From assembly GCA_965221695.1 (NCBI GenBank), contig OZ244905.1, positions 864,001 to 928,000 of the forward strand: a stretch of DNA of 64,000 bases, read 5' to 3'. The DNA is from Gammaproteobacteria bacterium. Its GTDB lineage: Bacteria; Pseudomonadota; Gammaproteobacteria; Eutrophobiales; Eutrophobiaceae. The position numbers and the translations under genes are program-made. How positions within the stretch are numbered: the stretch's first letter is position 1; the number at the start of each line of letters is the position of its first letter. Below, piece by piece: positions 1 through 34,617 of this stretch. Below the pieces are notes generated by a model. It was given only the letters and a program-made list of their open reading frames with translations, was not told where the DNA came from and searched no databases.

Positions 1-932
1 ATAGACCGCGGACAGGCTGCTCCGCCGATTACAACCCGCTTCAAGGTATCGACCTGTTTGCCCGTCTCGTCAAGATACTTGAGCAGGTTCAGCCAGACGG
101 TGGGCACACCGGCGGAATAAGTCACTTCTTCCTCTTCGATCAAGGCCTGCAAGGTCGCGCCGTCCCCCATTTTGGGGCCGGGGAACACCAGCTTGGCGCC
201 GGCTATCGGCGCGCCGTAAGCCAGACCCCAGGCATTGACGTGAAACATGGGTACCACCGCCATGACCACATCCCGGGCAGACAGGCCAAAACAATCCGTC
301 GAGATGCCAACCAGCGTATGCAAGACCATCGAACGGTGATGGTACAGCACGCCCTTGGGATTGCCCGTGGTGCCGGAGGTATAGCACAGGCAGCAGGCCG
401 TTTTCTCGTCCAGGTCAGGCCAGTCAATCCGGTCCGGATGAGAGCTGATGAAGGATTCATAGGACTGTGCGTTTTTCAGTTCGGTATCAGGCATATGGTC
501 ATCATCCGTGAGAATGATATAAGCCTCTATGCACGGCAGATCATCCTTGATTTTCTCCAGCGTTGGAACAATCAACGGATCGACAAAGACCAACCTGTCT
601 TCGGCATGGTTCACGATATAGGTAATCTGGTCCGGGAACAGGCGCGGATTTACCGTATGAGTTACGGCCCCTATGCCCGCGATCGCGTAATACAACTCAA
701 AATGGCGGTAATCGTTCCAGGCAAAGGTAGCGATGCGCTCACCAGGCTGTATGCCATAGTCTAGCAACGCATTCGCCAGCCGGCGCGTCCTGCGGAATGC
801 ATCCCCGTAGGTATGCCTGTGCCTTGAGTCGTCACAGGTAACGGATACGATCTCCGCTTCGGGATGGTTCGAGTTGGCATATTCCATTATCGAGGTAATG
901 GTCAACTGCCTGTCCATCATCAGACCCAGCAT
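1..932 (-). CDS. Acyl-CoA ligase (AMP-binding; AlkK/DmdB-like), 3' end beyond window edge
   Basis: Manual translation from ATG at 932: MLGLMMDRQLTITSIMEYANSNHPEAEIVS..., with AMP-binding motif LCYTSGTTGNPKGVLY and PMFHVNAWG. Confidence 0.85.
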   Translation of the reverse strand, partial: MLGLMMDRQLTITSIMEYANSNHPEAEIVSVTCDDSRHRHTYGDAFRRTRRLANALLDYGIQPGERIATFAWNDYRHFELYYAIAGIGAVTHTVNPRLFPDQITYIVNHAEDRLVFVDPLIVPTLEKIKDDLPCIEAYIILTDDDHMPDTELKNAQSYESFISSHPDRIDWPDLDEKTACCLCYTSGTTGNPKGVLYHHRSMVLHTLVGISTDCFGLSARDVVMAVVPMFHVNAWGLAYGAPIAGAKLVFPGPKMGDGATLQALIEEEEVTYSAGVPTVWLNLLKYLDETGKQVDTLKRVVIGGAACPRS

Positions 933-988
933 TTTCTTTCCCCCAGATTATTGCTGTGTAAATTTTACCATCTTACCTGAGACCTGTA

Positions 989-1110
989 CCATTCCCGTGC
1001 AAACGGGAATCCAGTGGAACAAAGGGTCGCCCGGAGGGCGACACTGTATTTGACTGGACTCCCGCTTTTCAGCCTGCCCCTGTATGGCGTTGAGCAGGGG
1101 CGGGAGTGGG
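989..1110. repeat. REP/BIME-like composite repeat, family 1
   Basis: CCATTCCCGTGCAAACGGGAATCCAG + GTCGCCC-N4-GGGCGAC hairpin + inverted CTGGACTCCCGC..CGGGAGTGG; same units recur at five other loci. Confidence 0.85.
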
Positions 1111-1192
1111 ACGGAGGCATGACTTGGCTGATGCCAATCGTTACACGCCGTCGGGGTGAGCAACGTCCTGATCAGGAAGATTTATCAGAAAA

Positions 1193-2110
1193 TTATATAC
1201 CGGTCTCGTCGAAGCGGGAATAGAATTCAGCGGCCGGCTGCCTTGGCCGTCCTTCTAAAGTCTCCATGTTGTTCATCAGGTATTCTACCGAGTCTTCCCG
1301 CACTGCGCGGTAGATGTTTTTTGTCAGGTTATACGCTGCAGCGCCGGACCAGTTCGGCGGCAGGAGTTCGGCTGGCAGGTCGGAATCCTGTAAATGTATG
1401 CGCCGGTATTCGTGAATCAGCAGCGCGCGCGCCTGGAACGATTGCCCGGGGTCTGTTTTCTTCGCGCTTTTCAAGGCGCGGTAAACAGGATGGTAGCGGC
1501 GGATAAAATGCTGGTATCTTCGTTCTATCTCTCCCAGGTCCCAGCAATCATGGGATAACTGCCGTAATACCTCGCGCGAGGCGAGTTCTTCCGTAGCGGC
1601 GATAAACACCAGTGTCTTCCCGGTCAAACCCAGTTCCATCAGGGTCTCATCCAGTGATTGCCTGTCAGCGGAAGGGTAAGCCAGCAATCCCGGCAACAGC
1701 GCGCCGTAGCCCAGCCATGACAACTCCCGGCGTAACTGCTCTTTCTCCTCCTGGTTGCAGAGAGAAGGCAATACCAGGGTCCACTTGCCGTCCCAGGGCT
1801 GGCGCCCGGCATAATATATGCGGCGCGCGGCCTTTTCGTAATGCTTTCGCCCCGCTTCGGTGAAACTATAATAACTGCGCCTGCCTACCTGCGTTGCGGC
1901 CAGCCAGTCCTCTTTCACGAGTCTGAACACCGCGGTGCGAATCTGCCTGTGATTCAGACCGAACGGTTCCAGTATCCTGATCAGGCTGCCCAGCCAGATA
2001 GCGCCGCCATGGGGGGAGACCACATCGCCAAACAGGGTAATGACCAGCGAGCCGGTACGGATGGGCTTGCGCGCGGAAAACTCCTCCAGCAGGTTGCTGA
2101 CCTGTTTCAT
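1193..2110 (-). CDS. paaX: Phenylacetate degradation repressor PaaX
   Basis: SLVITLFGD..HGGAIWLGSLI N-terminus, WDGKWTLV, DLPAELLPPNWSG; last gene of the paa operon. Confidence 0.95.
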   Translation of the reverse strand: MKQVSNLLEEFSARKPIRTGSLVITLFGDVVSPHGGAIWLGSLIRILEPFGLNHRQIRTAVFRLVKEDWLAATQVGRRSYYSFTEAGRKHYEKAARRIYYAGRQPWDGKWTLVLPSLCNQEEKEQLRRELSWLGYGALLPGLLAYPSADRQSLDETLMELGLTGKTLVFIAATEELASREVLRQLSHDCWDLGEIERRYQHFIRRYHPVYRALKSAKKTDPGQSFQARALLIHEYRRIHLQDSDLPAELLPPNWSGAAAYNLTKNIYRAVREDSVEYLMNNMETLEGRPRQPAAEFYSRFDETGI

Positions 2111-32676: not shown

Positions 32677-33201
32677 TTAATCAGCTTGCAGATTCGCCAG
32701 GTCCGCAAGGACCTCGGCGCTGTGGGTATCGGGGTCCACTTTTCGGTAGGTCTTTGCAATCTTGCCGGCGGGGTCAATGATAAAGGTATGCCGCGCGGCG
32801 ATGGTCATGCCCAGCCACTTTGTCAGAGAGCCGTATTGCCTGGCTGTTTCGCCTTCGGCGTCGGACAACAGCGGAAACGGCAAACCATATTTTTCCGCGA
32901 AGCGGGCGTGGCTTTCGGCGCTGTCGAGACTGACGCCAAGCACTTCCGCATCCAAAGCCCGCAGTTTGAAGATGTCATCGCGGAAATTGCACGCCTCGGT
33001 GGTGCAACCGGGCGTATCGTCTTTGGGATAAAAGTACAACACCACCCACTTGCCCTGGTACTGCTCCAGGCTATGGGTTTTCATGTGCTGATCCTGCATC
33101 ACAAACCCGGGCGCAGGTTGCCCGGCCTGAAGCTCGGCAGCCGCGACCTGATGTCCGAACAGAAAGCAGACCAGAAAAGAGATTGATCTCACTATTACCA
33201 T
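32677..33201 (-). CDS. Peroxiredoxin (Bcp/PrxQ type) with signal peptide
   Basis: VVLYFYPKDDTPGCTTEAC. Confidence 0.92.
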   Translation of the reverse strand: MVIVRSISFLVCFLFGHQVAAAELQAGQPAPGFVMQDQHMKTHSLEQYQGKWVVLYFYPKDDTPGCTTEACNFRDDIFKLRALDAEVLGVSLDSAESHARFAEKYGLPFPLLSDAEGETARQYGSLTKWLGMTIAARHTFIIDPAGKIAKTYRKVDPDTHSAEVLADLANLQAD

Positions 33202-33228
33202 AAGGTGATTATACACGGGATGAATTAA

Positions 33229-33379
33229 GGAAGCTCTGATTAAGTCAGAGCTTCCTGCGATACAGGGATGTATCGCTAAATTCGATGACGATAAGTCATT
33301 GAATTTGTGAGCAAAATAAAAATCGCATTTTTGTTTTGCGTGCCCTGACAAGTCCAGGATGGACTTGTTCAGAGCTTCC
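33229..33379. mobile_element. 151-bp IS5-type MITE, copy 1
   Basis: TTAA|GGAAGCTCTGA...TCAGAGCTTCC|TTAA; same length as the copies at 56261 and 63585. Confidence 0.85.
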
Positions 33380-33525
33380 TTAACATGGATACACAGGATG
33401 AACAGGATGATTTTACTAGCTGGCCTGCGACGCGGGGATGCATCGCTCAGAGAAGTGCTGGATGGACACGTTCAGAGTTTCCTTAGTATACTCTCCTTTA
33501 GCGTTCGACTGACGGGGGTTCTTCC

Positions 33526-34617
33526 ATGGCTTCACAGACTCTTGCTGAGAGACAACAGAAACTGGCCTCAATTTCAGCGGCGAGTATGGCCGATCGCGAC
33601 ACACCACTGATCAGGAATGCCTGGTATGTGGCTGCGCGCAGCGATGAAATCACTCGCAAGCTGTTTTCCCGGCAATACCTGGGCGTCAGCGTTGTGCTGT
33701 TTCGCAAGGAGAATGGTACGCCGGTGGCTTTGCAGAACCGTTGCTGCCATCGCTCGTTTCCATTGGCTGAGGGTAAGCTGTACGGTGATGTGCTGGAATG
33801 CGGTTATCACGGCTTCCGCTATAACACCGACGGCAGGTGTGTGGCGGTGCCATCGCAGAAACGCCCGCCACAAAATATCGGCCTGCGCACGTTTCCGGTT
33901 GTGGAGAAAAAACCTTTTATCTGGATCTGGCCGGGCGACCCGGACAAGGCGGACGAGGCCCTCCTACCAAACCAGTTCTACCTGGACCACCCGGACTGGG
34001 CGGTTAACATCGGTTTCCTGAACATAAAAGGCAGCTATGTCAGCCTGCATGAAAACCTGCTGGACTTGTCGCACCTGAGCTTCCTGCATGACAAGACCTT
34101 CGGCACGCCGGAATATGCGCGCGCGCCGATTGAAGACACGGTCGGTGACGAACATTTTGAGGTGTGGCGGCACGTGGAATGCGTGTTGCCGCCGATTTAC
34201 GCCAAGCCGCTGGGTTGGGAGGGCGAAAAAGCCATGCGCAGTTCCGGCTCGCTGTTTGTCAGCCCCGGCCTGCACGTTAACTCCGGCATCCTGAAAAACC
34301 TGGACAAACCGGAAAAAATGCAAAAACTGCAGCCTCTTATCAAAGTGGCGCAGTTGATAACCCCGGAAACCAATACCTCGACAAATTATTATTACGCCCA
34401 GTGTCGCAACTTCTGTTTACACGATGAAGAAATGGGCGCGTTCATGCTGAAAGCCAACCAGGCCGCATTCAGCGAGGATGTGTTTGCGATCGAACACATC
34501 AACAGGATGCAAGACACCGATCAGACGCCCGGCTTCTTTGAGGTCGACGTGCCGGCAGACCGCGCCGGCATCGCAATGCGCCGCCACCTGAAAAAAATGG
34601 CGGACGCAGAGCGGTAG
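33526..34617 (+). CDS. Rieske non-heme iron oxygenase alpha subunit (VanA-like)
   Basis: RNAWYVAA, Rieske CCH..CGYH, mononuclear iron ENLLDLSH..FLH, FSED. Confidence 0.92.
   Translation: MASQTLAERQQKLASISAASMADRDTPLIRNAWYVAARSDEITRKLFSRQYLGVSVVLFRKENGTPVALQNRCCHRSFPLAEGKLYGDVLECGYHGFRYNTDGRCVAVPSQKRPPQNIGLRTFPVVEKKPFIWIWPGDPDKADEALLPNQFYLDHPDWAVNIGFLNIKGSYVSLHENLLDLSHLSFLHDKTFGTPEYARAPIEDTVGDEHFEVWRHVECVLPPIYAKPLGWEGEKAMRSSGSLFVSPGLHVNSGILKNLDKPEKMQKLQPLIKVAQLITPETNTSTNYYYAQCRNFCLHDEEMGAFMLKANQAAFSEDVFAIEHINRMQDTDQTPGFFEVDVPADRAGIAMRRHLKKMADAER

Follow-up and report, generated by a model that had tools for sequence, protein, structure and literature searches.

A reductive dehalogenase and an amine dehydrogenase between the two halves of a phenylacetate (paa) gene cluster: a conserved gammaproteobacterial gene block that may represent an enlarged catabolon

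We analyzed a stretch of 64,000 nucleotides from a gammaproteobacterial chromosome (G000:C1:864001-928000, contig OZ244905.1), which is called the window throughout. In its part 1-34617, two halves of a phenylacetate degradation (paa) gene cluster, separated by a gap of 22.5 kb, flank a reductive dehalogenase gene (rdhA1), a permease and modules for amide and amine conversion, and a Rieske oxygenase gene lies beyond the second half. The source genome (G000) is a single contig of 3.54 Mb. This arrangement is not a chance accumulation of genes, since its order is kept across the genus and links between its parts recur outside the genus. We read the block, with a probability of about 0.5, as a lineage-specific enlarged paa cluster (catabolon), the peripheral modules of which are tied to the catabolism of aromatic acids. 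As predicted from its gene content, the block probably lets the bacterium strip and consume brominated, methylated, amine or amide aromatics. The closest characterized relatives of the key enzymes, which are the reductive dehalogenase of Nitratireductor pacificus (NpRdhA), the aromatic amine dehydrogenase (AADH), the oxygenase DdmC and the HdaH sub-cluster 1b, act on aromatic and often halogenated substrates.

Gene identities were assigned with Pfam, the equivalog cut-offs of NCBIfam and sequence matches to PDB entries. All genes that an initial annotation of this DNA had named were recovered at their positions (Pfam, NCBIfam). In addition, we found genes for a uracil-DNA glycosylase (UDG), a CrtI-like protein, EthD, a NUDIX-metallo-beta-lactamase (MBL) protein, DUF4019, Fic, a cytochrome c, a PrxQ-like protein and two hypothetical proteins (hyp162, hyp103). 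The paa genes, rdhA1, the permease genes and the genes around the tryptophan tryptophylquinone (TTQ) dehydrogenase are located as follows:

1193-2110, minus strand: paaX, repressor (PaaX, PaaX_M and PaaX_C domains)
2111-3205, minus strand: paaE (Pfam), first listed gene of the phenylacetyl-CoA epoxidase gene set paaEDCBA
3303-3827, minus strand: paaD (Pfam)
3835-4587, minus strand: paaC (Pfam)
4584-4886, minus strand: paaB (Pfam)
4974-5924, minus strand: paaA (Pfam)
6114-8315, minus strand: rdhA1, NpRdhA-type catabolic reductive dehalogenase of 733 amino acids (PDB 4RAS and TIGR02486)
8979-10706, minus strand: ActP-like sodium:solute symporter (PF00474)
10621-11034, minus strand: DUF485 small membrane protein (PF04341)
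25436-26596, plus strand: TTQ heavy chain (PF06433, 125.5 bits)
26730-27251, plus strand: TTQ light chain (PF02975, 169.8 bits)
27251-27739, plus strand: monoheme cytochrome c of 162 amino acids with leader and CQGCH heme site
27757-28068, plus strand: hyp103, an open reading frame (ORF) of 103 amino acids after the cytochrome c
28434-29750, minus strand: paaK, phenylacetate-CoA ligase (TIGR02155, 732.1 versus a cut-off of 646.3)
30162-32207, plus strand: paaZ (TIGR02278, 996.2 versus a cut-off of 562.8)
32200-32658, plus strand: paaI, "hydroxyphenylacetyl-CoA thioesterase" equivalog (TIGR02286, 144.5 versus a cut-off of 118.9)

PaaX and PaaK are 36% and 67% identical to the corresponding E. 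coli proteins, and paaK is divergent from paaZ-paaI. In the catabolon that we propose, a PaaL-like permease with its DUF485 protein, paaABCDE, paaX, paaK, paaZ and paaI would be the canonical paa parts and the peripheral modules would deliver arylacetates.

To quantify conservation of the block, orthologues were surveyed in 40 relatives plus G000 (22 of them from the same genus) and 62-kb regions were rebuilt from ten same-genus genomes. The close relatives compared were metagenome-assembled genomes (MAGs) throughout, all labelled Gammaproteobacteria, and the isolate labels of some may be similar to those used in sponge-microbiome studies. Same-genus orthologues were found for rdhA and for the TTQ heavy chain (ttqH) in 21/22 genomes and for paaA in 20/22. 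Searches of G010 (97% complete) and of G023 (100% complete) detected none of these three genes; G010 retains tetR-aceE, and the 40 kb upstream carry neither an island gene nor a paa gene. The order rdhA, actP-DUF485, nudixMBL, ttqH-ttqL-cytc, paaK, paaZ-paaI is shared by all ten rebuilt regions. A chance accumulation of catabolic genes, which the initial annotation had offered as an alternative, does not fit an order conserved in ten of ten long same-genus regions with parts that recur outside the genus. The synteny search for rdhA, TTQ and paa genes that it had suggested returned a genus-wide conserved block, and the genes are not scattered in most close relatives. When rdhA and paaA are encoded on one contig (19 genomes), the gap between them is at most 0.3 kb in 14/19 and at most 3 kb in 16/19 genomes, two of the gaps being 2.7-3.0 kb; the three larger gaps measure 11.5 kb, 18.7 kb and 624 kb. 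The distance between rdhA and ttqH amounts to 3-26 kb in 17/18 genomes and to 2 Mb in G012.

Presence of the single components varied among the ten relatives. The NUDIX-MBL gene and the TTQ genes with cytochrome c were present in 10/10, the trio of CN-hydrolase, CrtI and EthD genes in 9/10, the gene of a histone deacetylase (HDAC)-like protein (hdac) in 9/10, paaX-EDCBA within 10 kb of rdhA in 8/10, the amidase in 5/10, the tripartite ATP-independent periplasmic (TRAP) transport module in 3/10 and Fic with DUF4019 in 0/10. The VanA-like Rieske gene lies between the DUF485 and CN-hydrolase genes in 7/10 relatives, follows PrxQ as in the window in 1/10 and was not found in 2/10. The variable DNA between the modules of relatives encodes TonB-dependent receptors in 3/10 ORFs tested, and among the other inserted genes are one for a FecR-type sensor, one for an amidohydrolase that directly follows the VanA-like gene, and one each for an additional acyl-CoA ligase and a protein with Kelch repeats (examples: L020:1027-3417, L100:8887-11289, L110:7451-10060).

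Parts of the block recur outside the conserved order. In the sister genus (G024), rdhA (67%) is divergent from a VanA-like gene (61%) with a gap of 147 bp, a set of TTQ heavy chain, light chain and cytochrome c genes lies 6 kb off and a second EthD-TTQ set 36 kb off. Neighboring genes encode an aromatic-ring hydroxylase, a pyridoxal phosphate-dependent decarboxylase, a TonB receptor and a thioredoxin-like protein. Assignment of this decarboxylase as tyrosine decarboxylase was dropped, as its best model was diaminobutyrate decarboxylase, far under the cut-off. In G017, cytc-ttqL-ttqH and hdac are immediately beside rdhA, and at locus L047 a 69% VanA-like gene is divergent from rdhA with an 80-bp gap. 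At the distant locus L050, crtI-ethD and nudixMBL are 6.3 kb from rdhA. Woeseiaceae-type loci (L034-L051, e.g., L042:10001-13127) carry rdhA followed by a NUDIX gene of ~260 amino acids and often by an MBL-fold gene of ~280 amino acids; the genes overlap or are separated by 8-60 bp and form an operon, which is a split version of the 492-amino acid fusion of the island. When the neighboring ORFs around 62 distant rdhA loci were clustered, NUDIX (10/62) and MBL (8/62) proved to be the commonest neighbors of NpRdhA-type genes. No neighbor family was found at more than 10 of these 62 loci and thus, NpRdhA-type genes have no universal partner. As for paa, a 46% ActP-like homologue is located inside a canonical paa cluster of a third family (G031). 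In another family (G307), the gene of a TTQ light chain (51%) lies, together with two genes for cytochrome c, 5.6 kb from paaX-ABCDE at the end of a contig, where the TTQ heavy chain was not seen. In a class-wide sample of 300 genomes, paaA was present in 13, G031 and G307 among them. Loci related by the TTQ heavy chain numbered 18, of which 17 belong to the same genus (75-99% identity) and one shares 33% identity.

Signals of transcription in the block include the following two elements:

5956..5995, minus strand: paaA promoter TTGACA-16-TATCAT (sigma-70-like; promoter scan 11/12) inside the inverted repeat TGATAC-N27-GTATCA, in the rdhA-paaA gap
6076..6092, minus strand: terminator-like hairpin just past the rdhA stop codon, part of a repeat resembling repetitive extragenic palindromes (REP-like)

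The operator of E. coli PaaX (TGATTC-N20-32-GAATCA) is the template on which we read the repeat. This E. coli-type box has no exact match in the window. The inverted repeat TGATAC-N27-GTATCA is exact 5' of paaA in nine of nine genus genomes, and in the form TGATAC-N27/28-GTATCA just three exact copies occur in the whole genome. The intergenic region between paaK and paaZ carries a copy with one mismatch in two genomes; the copy of the window has two mismatches. Because of its analogy to the E. coli operator, the repeat reads as a predicted PaaX-like operator. The third exact copy (TGATAC-N28-GTATCA, G000:C1:413886-413925; locus L140, about 9886) has a spacer nearly identical to that of the paaA copy and lies between a TonB-dependent receptor gene and an amidase gene with two Amidohydro_3 genes behind it. 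The amidase encoded there shares 40% identity with that of the island, and the locus may be a PaaX-regulated site of amide hydrolysis. The REP-like intergenic repeat consists of two GC-rich hairpins of the types GTCGCC-N-GGCGAC and CTCCCGC-N-GCGGGAG. It occurs in the window at 933-1192, 5925-6113, 11035-11256 and at about 42.3 kb, 47.0 kb and 60.1 kb; genome-wide there are about 110 copies per hairpin type, 50 of them as composites. A tRNA scan returned no gene and thus no tRNA-linked boundary of the island, and Rfam at its gathering threshold gave no match in window 1-36000 and no riboswitch.

RdhA1 can be aligned over its full length with NpRdhA (residues 3-701 to residues 3-695 of PDB 4RAS, E 7e-195), which includes the vestigial N-terminal duplication of the cobalamin domain, and it exceeds the cut-off of TIGR02486 (191.2 versus 160.35). 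It is identical to NpRdhA at Y426, K488, R552, S422, M423, F290 and F310 and differs in the pocket by A419G, P311S and K307R. The functional residues of NpRdhA are the Tyr-Lys dyad Y426/K488 and the phenol-binding R552/S422, as given in the accessible text of PMC7565698. The cysteines of two 4Fe-4S motifs (query 512-524 and 561-569) have counterparts in the aligned NpRdhA sequence; the Fer4_7 model of Pfam scored 25.4, under its cut-off of 27. Only some 32 residues extend past the NpRdhA alignment and Pfam detected no FNR or Fer2 domain in RdhA1. Since it has no C-terminal reductase domain, RdhA1 is by its domain structure a member of the "truncated" clade of catabolic RdhAs, as far as this clade is described in the accessible part of PMC10463259. 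According to the same excerpts, every characterized catabolic RdhA needs an ortho-halogenated phenol, JtRdhA reaches 99% of its best rate when it debrominates 3-bromo-4-hydroxyphenylacetate, and reconstitution of NpRdhA with its neighboring ferredoxins failed. The only gene of the block with a reductase or ferredoxin domain is paaE. The genome contains one cobalamin riboswitch.

The rdhA gene is wedged between the permease genes and paaA, and this arrangement suggests substrates of the arylacetate type. Likely substrates of RdhA1 would be bromo-hydroxy-arylacetates or bromo-hydroxy-benzoates imported by the adjoining permease. In the proposed mechanism, the DdmC-like oxygenase would O-demethylate halo-methoxy aromatic acids to ortho-halophenols, which the reductase-less, cobalamin-dependent RdhA1 would then debrominate. 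The resulting hydroxy-arylacetates would probably enter other routes of the cell rather than being activated by PaaK, with HmgA and HpaB-like enzymes as candidates; HmgA and an HpaB-like oxygenase are encoded elsewhere in the genome. The same position of rdhA between permease and paaA is also consistent with a safeguard, in which RdhA1 (together with the VanA-like enzyme) dehalogenates arylacetates that PaaK would otherwise mis-activate to dead-end CoA esters, leaving their removal to PaaI and the NUDIX-MBL protein (resembling a thioesterase or CoA-pyrophosphatase). The PaaI equivalog name, the resemblance of the NUDIX-MBL protein to hydroxyacylglutathione hydrolases (NCBIfam) and its frequency beside distant NpRdhA-type genes point in this direction. 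However, this is inference only and NUDIX-MBL-winged-helix fusions are widespread among bacteria and archaea, so that we regard the safeguard as improbable.

A second NpRdhA-type gene (RdhA2; 748 amino acids, about 50% identical to RdhA1) is located ~80 kb to the left of the window (G000:C1:772001-792000, locus L141). It belongs to an array on one strand that encodes MMPL-like, DUF1302, DUF1329 and DsbA-like proteins, RdhA2, an HpaB-family monooxygenase, another DUF1329 protein and an intradiol dioxygenase of the catechol/hydroxyquinol type, flanked by a TonB receptor and an amidohydrolase. This array looks like a cluster for halophenol degradation. Most genomes of the genus carry an RdhA2 orthologue at 47-50% identity.

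The TTQ heavy chain matched AADH better than methylamine dehydrogenase (MADH) in the PDB comparison (4e-47 versus 9e-29). Alignment of the light chain with the AADH beta chain is gap-free and reveals shared motifs that are specific to AADH, while alignment to MADH needs a gap. Both tryptophans that form TTQ, the catalytic Asp and the 12 Cys of the light chain are conserved (compared with 2AGL_D and 3C75_L). The MADH equivalogs TIGR02658 and TIGR02659 were not reached (127.9 versus 454.45 and 170.2 versus 196.85). Judged by eye, the leaders are Sec-like on the heavy chain and Tat-like on the light chain (RRGFLGG), and the enzyme is predicted to be a periplasmic TTQ dehydrogenase of the AADH type. 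Between its two subunit genes (gap of 133 bp) there are no mauE/mauD-like genes, although no search was aimed at MauE or MauD. The sole CCP_MauG gene of the genome (G000 1518216) is 630 kb away from the TTQ locus of the window. G000 carries four TTQ loci with heavy and light chain each (889436, 2435274, 346068, 2990234); CCP_MauG is far from all of them, and only the window copy is accompanied by the 162-amino acid cytochrome c. In one relative the heavy-chain gene contains an in-frame TGA (G019:C1:2063727-2064874), and hdac and amidase were not found in its rebuilt region; this may reflect joint decay of the amine/amide module.

The amide-related genes between NUDIX-MBL and TTQ are:

19050-20489, minus strand: amidase-signature amidase, NylA-like (PF01425 1.6e-79; PDB 3A2P 8.6e-85)
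20556-23345, plus strand: TRAP genes dctP-dctQ-dctM (Pfam)
23364-23852, plus strand: hyp162, conserved ORF of 162 amino acids, part of the variable TRAP module
23912-25009, minus strand: HdaH-type (class IIb-like) zinc deacylase/amidohydrolase, the HDAC-like protein (PF00850 3.6e-86)

The hdac gene is divergent from the TTQ heavy chain gene, and in the nearest relative hdac, amidase and NUDIX-MBL genes form one operon. The HDAC-like protein matched dimethoate hydrolase (9GKW, 2.6e-103), HDAH FB188 (1ZZ0, 5e-102) and propanil hydrolase (9GKU, 2.5e-99), and the match to acetylpolyamine amidohydrolase (6PHR) was far weaker (5.4e-37). By these similarities it is a member of HdaH sub-cluster 1b (HdaH/DmhA/PrpH) and not of the ApaH/AcuC type. 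Sub-cluster 1b comprises lysine deacetylases as well as small-molecule amidohydrolases including the arylamidase PrpH, according to the accessible text of PMC11532494. Solved relatives of DctP bind many different ligands, and because of this diversity no DctP substrate can be inferred.

In the proposed pathway, the periplasmic AADH-type enzyme would convert arylethylamines to arylacetaldehydes, with its own cytochrome c as electron acceptor. The arylacetate would then be formed by an aldehyde dehydrogenase whose gene lies elsewhere, and PaaK would activate it for PaaABCDE and PaaZ. Cleavage of N-acyl or amide derivatives would fall to the NylA-like amidase and, in the cytoplasm, to the HdaH-type amidohydrolase. 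Alternatively, the amine and amide modules might be unrelated to aromatics, with the TTQ enzyme acting on aliphatic amines or polyamines and the HdaH-like protein on proteins or acetylpolyamines. This would be compatible with the lysine deacetylases of sub-cluster 1b (PMC11532494, accessible text), with the fact that both TTQ chains match methylamine dehydrogenase too, and with the decarboxylase gene in G024, the nearest, weak relative of which is diaminobutyrate decarboxylase. However, the preference of both chains for AADH, their scores under the MADH equivalog cut-offs, the weak acetylpolyamine amidohydrolase match and the persistent location of the TTQ block beside paaK/paaZ argue against it, and we consider a non-aromatic role unlikely.

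The permease gene was called ActP in the initial annotation. It encodes an ActP-like symporter accompanied by DUF485, but it remained under all three ActP/acetate-symporter cut-offs (724.3 versus 850, 721.2 versus 750 and 661.6 versus 1099.25). Both genes are found 5' of rdhA in all ten relatives, and a 53% paralogue of the symporter is encoded at G000 338825. Together they are a probable arylacetate permease of the PaaL-like type. The Rieske oxygenase, the CN-hydrolase trio and the NUDIX-MBL protein are encoded at:

11257-12462, plus strand: CN-hydrolase (PF00795, 106.8 bits)
12440-14032, plus strand: CrtI-like FAD oxidoreductase (CrtI/CrtO-like by NCBIfam)
14045-14353, plus strand: EthD-like gene, end of the CN-hydrolase/CrtI-like/EthD trio
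14345-15823, minus strand: NUDIX-MBL-winged-helix fusion of 492 amino acids (Pfam)
33526-34617, plus strand: VanA/DdmC-like Rieske monooxygenase (PF00355, 77.4 bits, and PF19112, 110.7 bits)

The VanA-like protein has its best PDB match, over the full length, in DdmC (3GB4, 3.3e-44) and is a probable aryl O-demethylase. The ORFs of the trio overlap or are adjacent, and the trio is a member of the block. Its CN-hydrolase had been labelled nitrilase-like; membership in the CN-hydrolase superfamily (PF00795) was confirmed, but it is not a true nitrilase (38.6 versus a nitrilase equivalog cut-off of 500) and its best solved match is a formamidase (1.7e-10). For the flavoprotein, we considered a DavB/DavA-like pair of amino-acid 2-monooxygenase and omega-amidase and dropped it, as the protein is CrtI/CrtO-like and resembles amine oxidases only weakly. 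A related pair of CrtI-like (27%) and CN-hydrolase (32%) genes is found at G000:C1:3308287-3311104. Protein-atlas searches with the CN-hydrolase and NUDIX-MBL sequences returned generic family names only. Outside the block, a PaaK-like ligase (32%) is paired with a VanA-like oxygenase (38%) at G000 1775437-1777785, near the best PaaJ-like thiolase (1781661).

A number of observations weigh against an enlarged paa cluster. Synteny within one genus partly reflects vertical inheritance and is weak evidence by itself, and the amidase and TRAP modules are variable (5/10 and 3/10). In G012 the block is split by 2 Mb into paaEDCBA, 18.7 kb and rdhA-actP-DUF485 on the one side and crtI-nudixMBL with hdac-TTQ-cytc-paaK-paaZ-paaI-tetR-aceEF on the other, and in G005 paaX-EDCBA is 624 kb from rdhA. 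Beyond the genus, the sub-links rdhA-vanA-TTQ and TTQ-paa recur, but the paa genes of G024 form one canonical cluster on a different contig from rdhA and TTQ, and neither paa nor TTQ genes occur within 10 kb at any of the 62 distant rdhA loci. The genes paaF, paaG, paaH and paaJ are all missing from the window, and their candidates (36-56% identical to the E. coli proteins) are dispersed in the genome. TIGR02280 and TIGR02430 (PaaG, PaaJ) stayed under cut-off genome-wide, and so did the E. coli control in six-frame mode. Past its stop codon, rdhA has the terminator-like hairpin, and paaA has a promoter of its own. No PaaX-like box with up to one mismatch was found 5' of rdhA, actP, vanA/cnhyd or hdac|ttqH in any of 11 regions searched; these units have their own conserved -10-like elements. 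Since the boxes sit at paa promoters only, the peripheral modules are probably not under PaaX control, and the island has no regulator of its own.

Further counterarguments concern the chemistry. RdhA1 has retained the ortho-halophenol pocket, and its predicted products would be hydroxy-arylacetates and not classical PaaK substrates; being ring-hydroxylated, they would meet a PaaK that is a phenylacetate-ligase equivalog. CbiC was not found in the genome, and cobalamin would therefore need to be salvaged. The HdaH-like protein lacks a signal peptide and is predicted to be cytoplasmic, in contrast to the periplasmic TTQ enzyme, so that deacetylation followed by oxidation would require re-export; protein lysine deacetylases, moreover, also belong to its sub-cluster. 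The only aldehyde dehydrogenase of the island is PaaZ; it holds no phenylacetaldehyde dehydrogenase, and the best FeaB-like gene is 193 kb away. The funnel toward PaaK that the initial annotation had drawn is thus in part consistent with our data, as the relatives are of the aromatic type and JtRdhA accepts 3-bromo-4-hydroxyphenylacetate (PMC10463259, accessible text), but hydroxylated products, PaaX boxes at paa only and differing compartments speak against the rest. Bromotyramine and bromotyrosine are possible as specific substrates, and this is much less certain than the link between the modules.

Many of these data would also fit independent modules that share a flexible neighborhood, have their own substrates and keep their order by descent only. 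One set would serve debromination and O-demethylation (rdhA, vanA-like, NUDIX-MBL, CrtI-like/EthD), another would oxidize amines as a source of nitrogen or energy (TTQ, cytochrome c, HdaH, amidase), and paa would be a third. Separate promoters of paaA, rdhA and ttqH, the hairpin, the restriction of PaaX-like boxes to paa promoters, the separation of paa in G024 and the split blocks of G012 and G005 are in line with such independence. The same holds for the many insertions and deletions between modules of relatives (TonB receptors, ligases, Kelch, FecR), for NUDIX/MBL, crtI-ethD and vanA accompanying rdhA in lineages without nearby paa, and for the four TTQ loci and the quite different context of the second RdhA locus in the same genome. 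However, rdhA stays between a paa-type permease and paaA (at most 0.3 kb in 14/19) despite heavy gene flux, the TTQ block still adjoins paaK-paaZ in the rearranged G012, a TTQ light chain is found beside paa in an unrelated family (G307), and rdhA and TTQ remain together in G024 and G017 even though the intervening genes are gone. We consider independence of the modules possible but doubtful, and prefer the enlarged paa cluster.

The remaining genes in and next to the block are:

3..932, minus strand: AMP-dependent acyl-CoA ligase, N-terminal 310 of 538 amino acids (PF00501 2e-60; C-terminal part PF13193); the gene crosses the left edge of the window
8467-8973, plus strand: UDG-family gene (PF03167)
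15837-16430, minus strand: DUF4019, strain-specific insertion
17081-18196, plus strand: Fic (SoFic-like), strain-specific insertion
32677-33351, minus strand: PrxQ/BCP-like peroxiredoxin with N-terminal extension (Pfam/NCBIfam)

The acyl-CoA ligase gene is next after paaX in 8/10 relatives, and its closest NCBIfam models, 3-(methylthio)propionyl-CoA and long-chain fatty-acid ligases, were both under cut-off. An ORF of 3411 amino acids (minus strand, G000:C1:851647-861882, locus L139) lies just left of the window, 1.4 kb from this gene. The UDG gene is an insertion that G008 alone was seen to share with G000; it is absent here in 9/10 relatives. DUF4019, Fic and about 850 bp of non-coding DNA (window 15837-19049, GC 0.50) are absent from all ten relatives including the 98-100%-identical G008. 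The peroxiredoxin gene is syntenic in 8/10 relatives, and to the right of the VanA-like gene follow tetR and then aceE-aceF-lpd.

Catabolic (aerobic) RdhAs are known from few cultured bacteria, and their natural substrates and electron donors are still open questions. A fixed, genus-wide partner set of a truncated RdhA provides candidates for substrates (bromo-hydroxy or bromo-methoxy arylacetates, arylethylamines) and for the reductase. A far-reaching version, which we rate as speculative and rather unlikely, holds that the genus has an oxygen-tolerant, reductase-less B12 debrominase built into its paa array with PaaE (phthalate dioxygenase reductase-like) or CrtI-like/EthD as electron donor, and that this forms, together with the DdmC-like, TTQ and HdaH/amidase modules and TonB receptors, a route for brominated, O-methylated and amide-linked natural products derived from tyrosine. 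If true, the electron-donor reading would identify the physiological redox partner that has long been sought for truncated catabolic RdhAs. The block would extend the concept of the phenylacetyl-CoA catabolon to natural organobromines, and suggests that uncultured marine-type heterotrophs join bromine cycling without organohalide respiration. Our literature search, which covered openly available papers without their supplements, found no description of rdhA inside a paa cluster and, among the non-subscription papers, nothing that brings phenylacetate gene clusters together with a TTQ aromatic amine dehydrogenase.

Comparison with known systems puts the block into context. The assertion of the initial annotation that no cluster of this combination is described was too strong, considering feaR-feaB-tynA beside paa in E. 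coli and BhbA in a bromoxynil cluster. In E. coli K-12, feaR-feaB-tynA is located next to paaZ and paaABCDEFGHIJK-paaXY, and there too a periplasmic oxidation of phenylethylamine-type amines is encoded beside paa and feeds it. The E. coli enzyme is a copper amine oxidase, whereas the enzyme here is a TTQ dehydrogenase that has a cytochrome c of its own, and our block has no FeaB-type dehydrogenase or FeaR, has paaFGHJ elsewhere and splits paa into halves. The Pseudomonas catabolon is not known to contain a dehalogenase or a TTQ enzyme, and its permease PaaL is a member of the sodium:solute symporter family. In Pseudomonas, upper pathways such as that of styrene lead into paa, and the gene of the dedicated permease PaaL is of similar size (1.647 kb; PMC3224230, accessible text).

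With NpRdhA (PDB 4RAS, 6ZXU), RdhA1 shares the full length, the vestigial N-terminal domain, Y426/K488/R552/S422 and the lack of a reductase domain. The NpRdhA gene lies beside a ferredoxin reductase and two ferredoxin genes (PMC10463259, accessible text), whereas only paaE is available here. The self-sufficient type represented by BhbA and JtRdhA carries at its C terminus a phthalate-dioxygenase-reductase domain, which RdhA1 lacks. A nitrilase and a binding protein of the TRAP type are reportedly also encoded in the bromoxynil cluster of Comamonas sp. 7D-2 (BhbA). In this cluster, as in our block, a catabolic RdhA is located inside a complete aerobic cluster for aromatic degradation, with the organohalide as carbon source; it differs by being plasmid-borne, by its self-sufficient RdhA and by cleavage of the protocatechuate type, as compared with a chromosomal, truncated RdhA in a paa (CoA-epoxide) context (PMC10463259, accessible text). 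The AADH of Alcaligenes faecalis (PDB 2AGL, 2H3X) is the best solved match of our heavy chain; the light chain aligns to it without gaps, the TTQ-forming Trp, the catalytic Asp and all Cys are kept, and export leaders are present on both subunits. Azurin is the electron acceptor of AADH in A. faecalis; here a cytochrome c is the partner, and the subunit genes have no mauE/mauD-like genes between them. DdmC (PDB 3GB4), finally, shares the architecture of Rieske and VanA_C domains with our VanA-like protein and is its best solved match, at moderate similarity and with no dedicated ferredoxin or reductase genes alongside the gene in the window. DdmC demethylates a chlorinated methoxy-benzoate to an ortho-chlorophenol, which is the kind of product that an NpRdhA-type enzyme needs.

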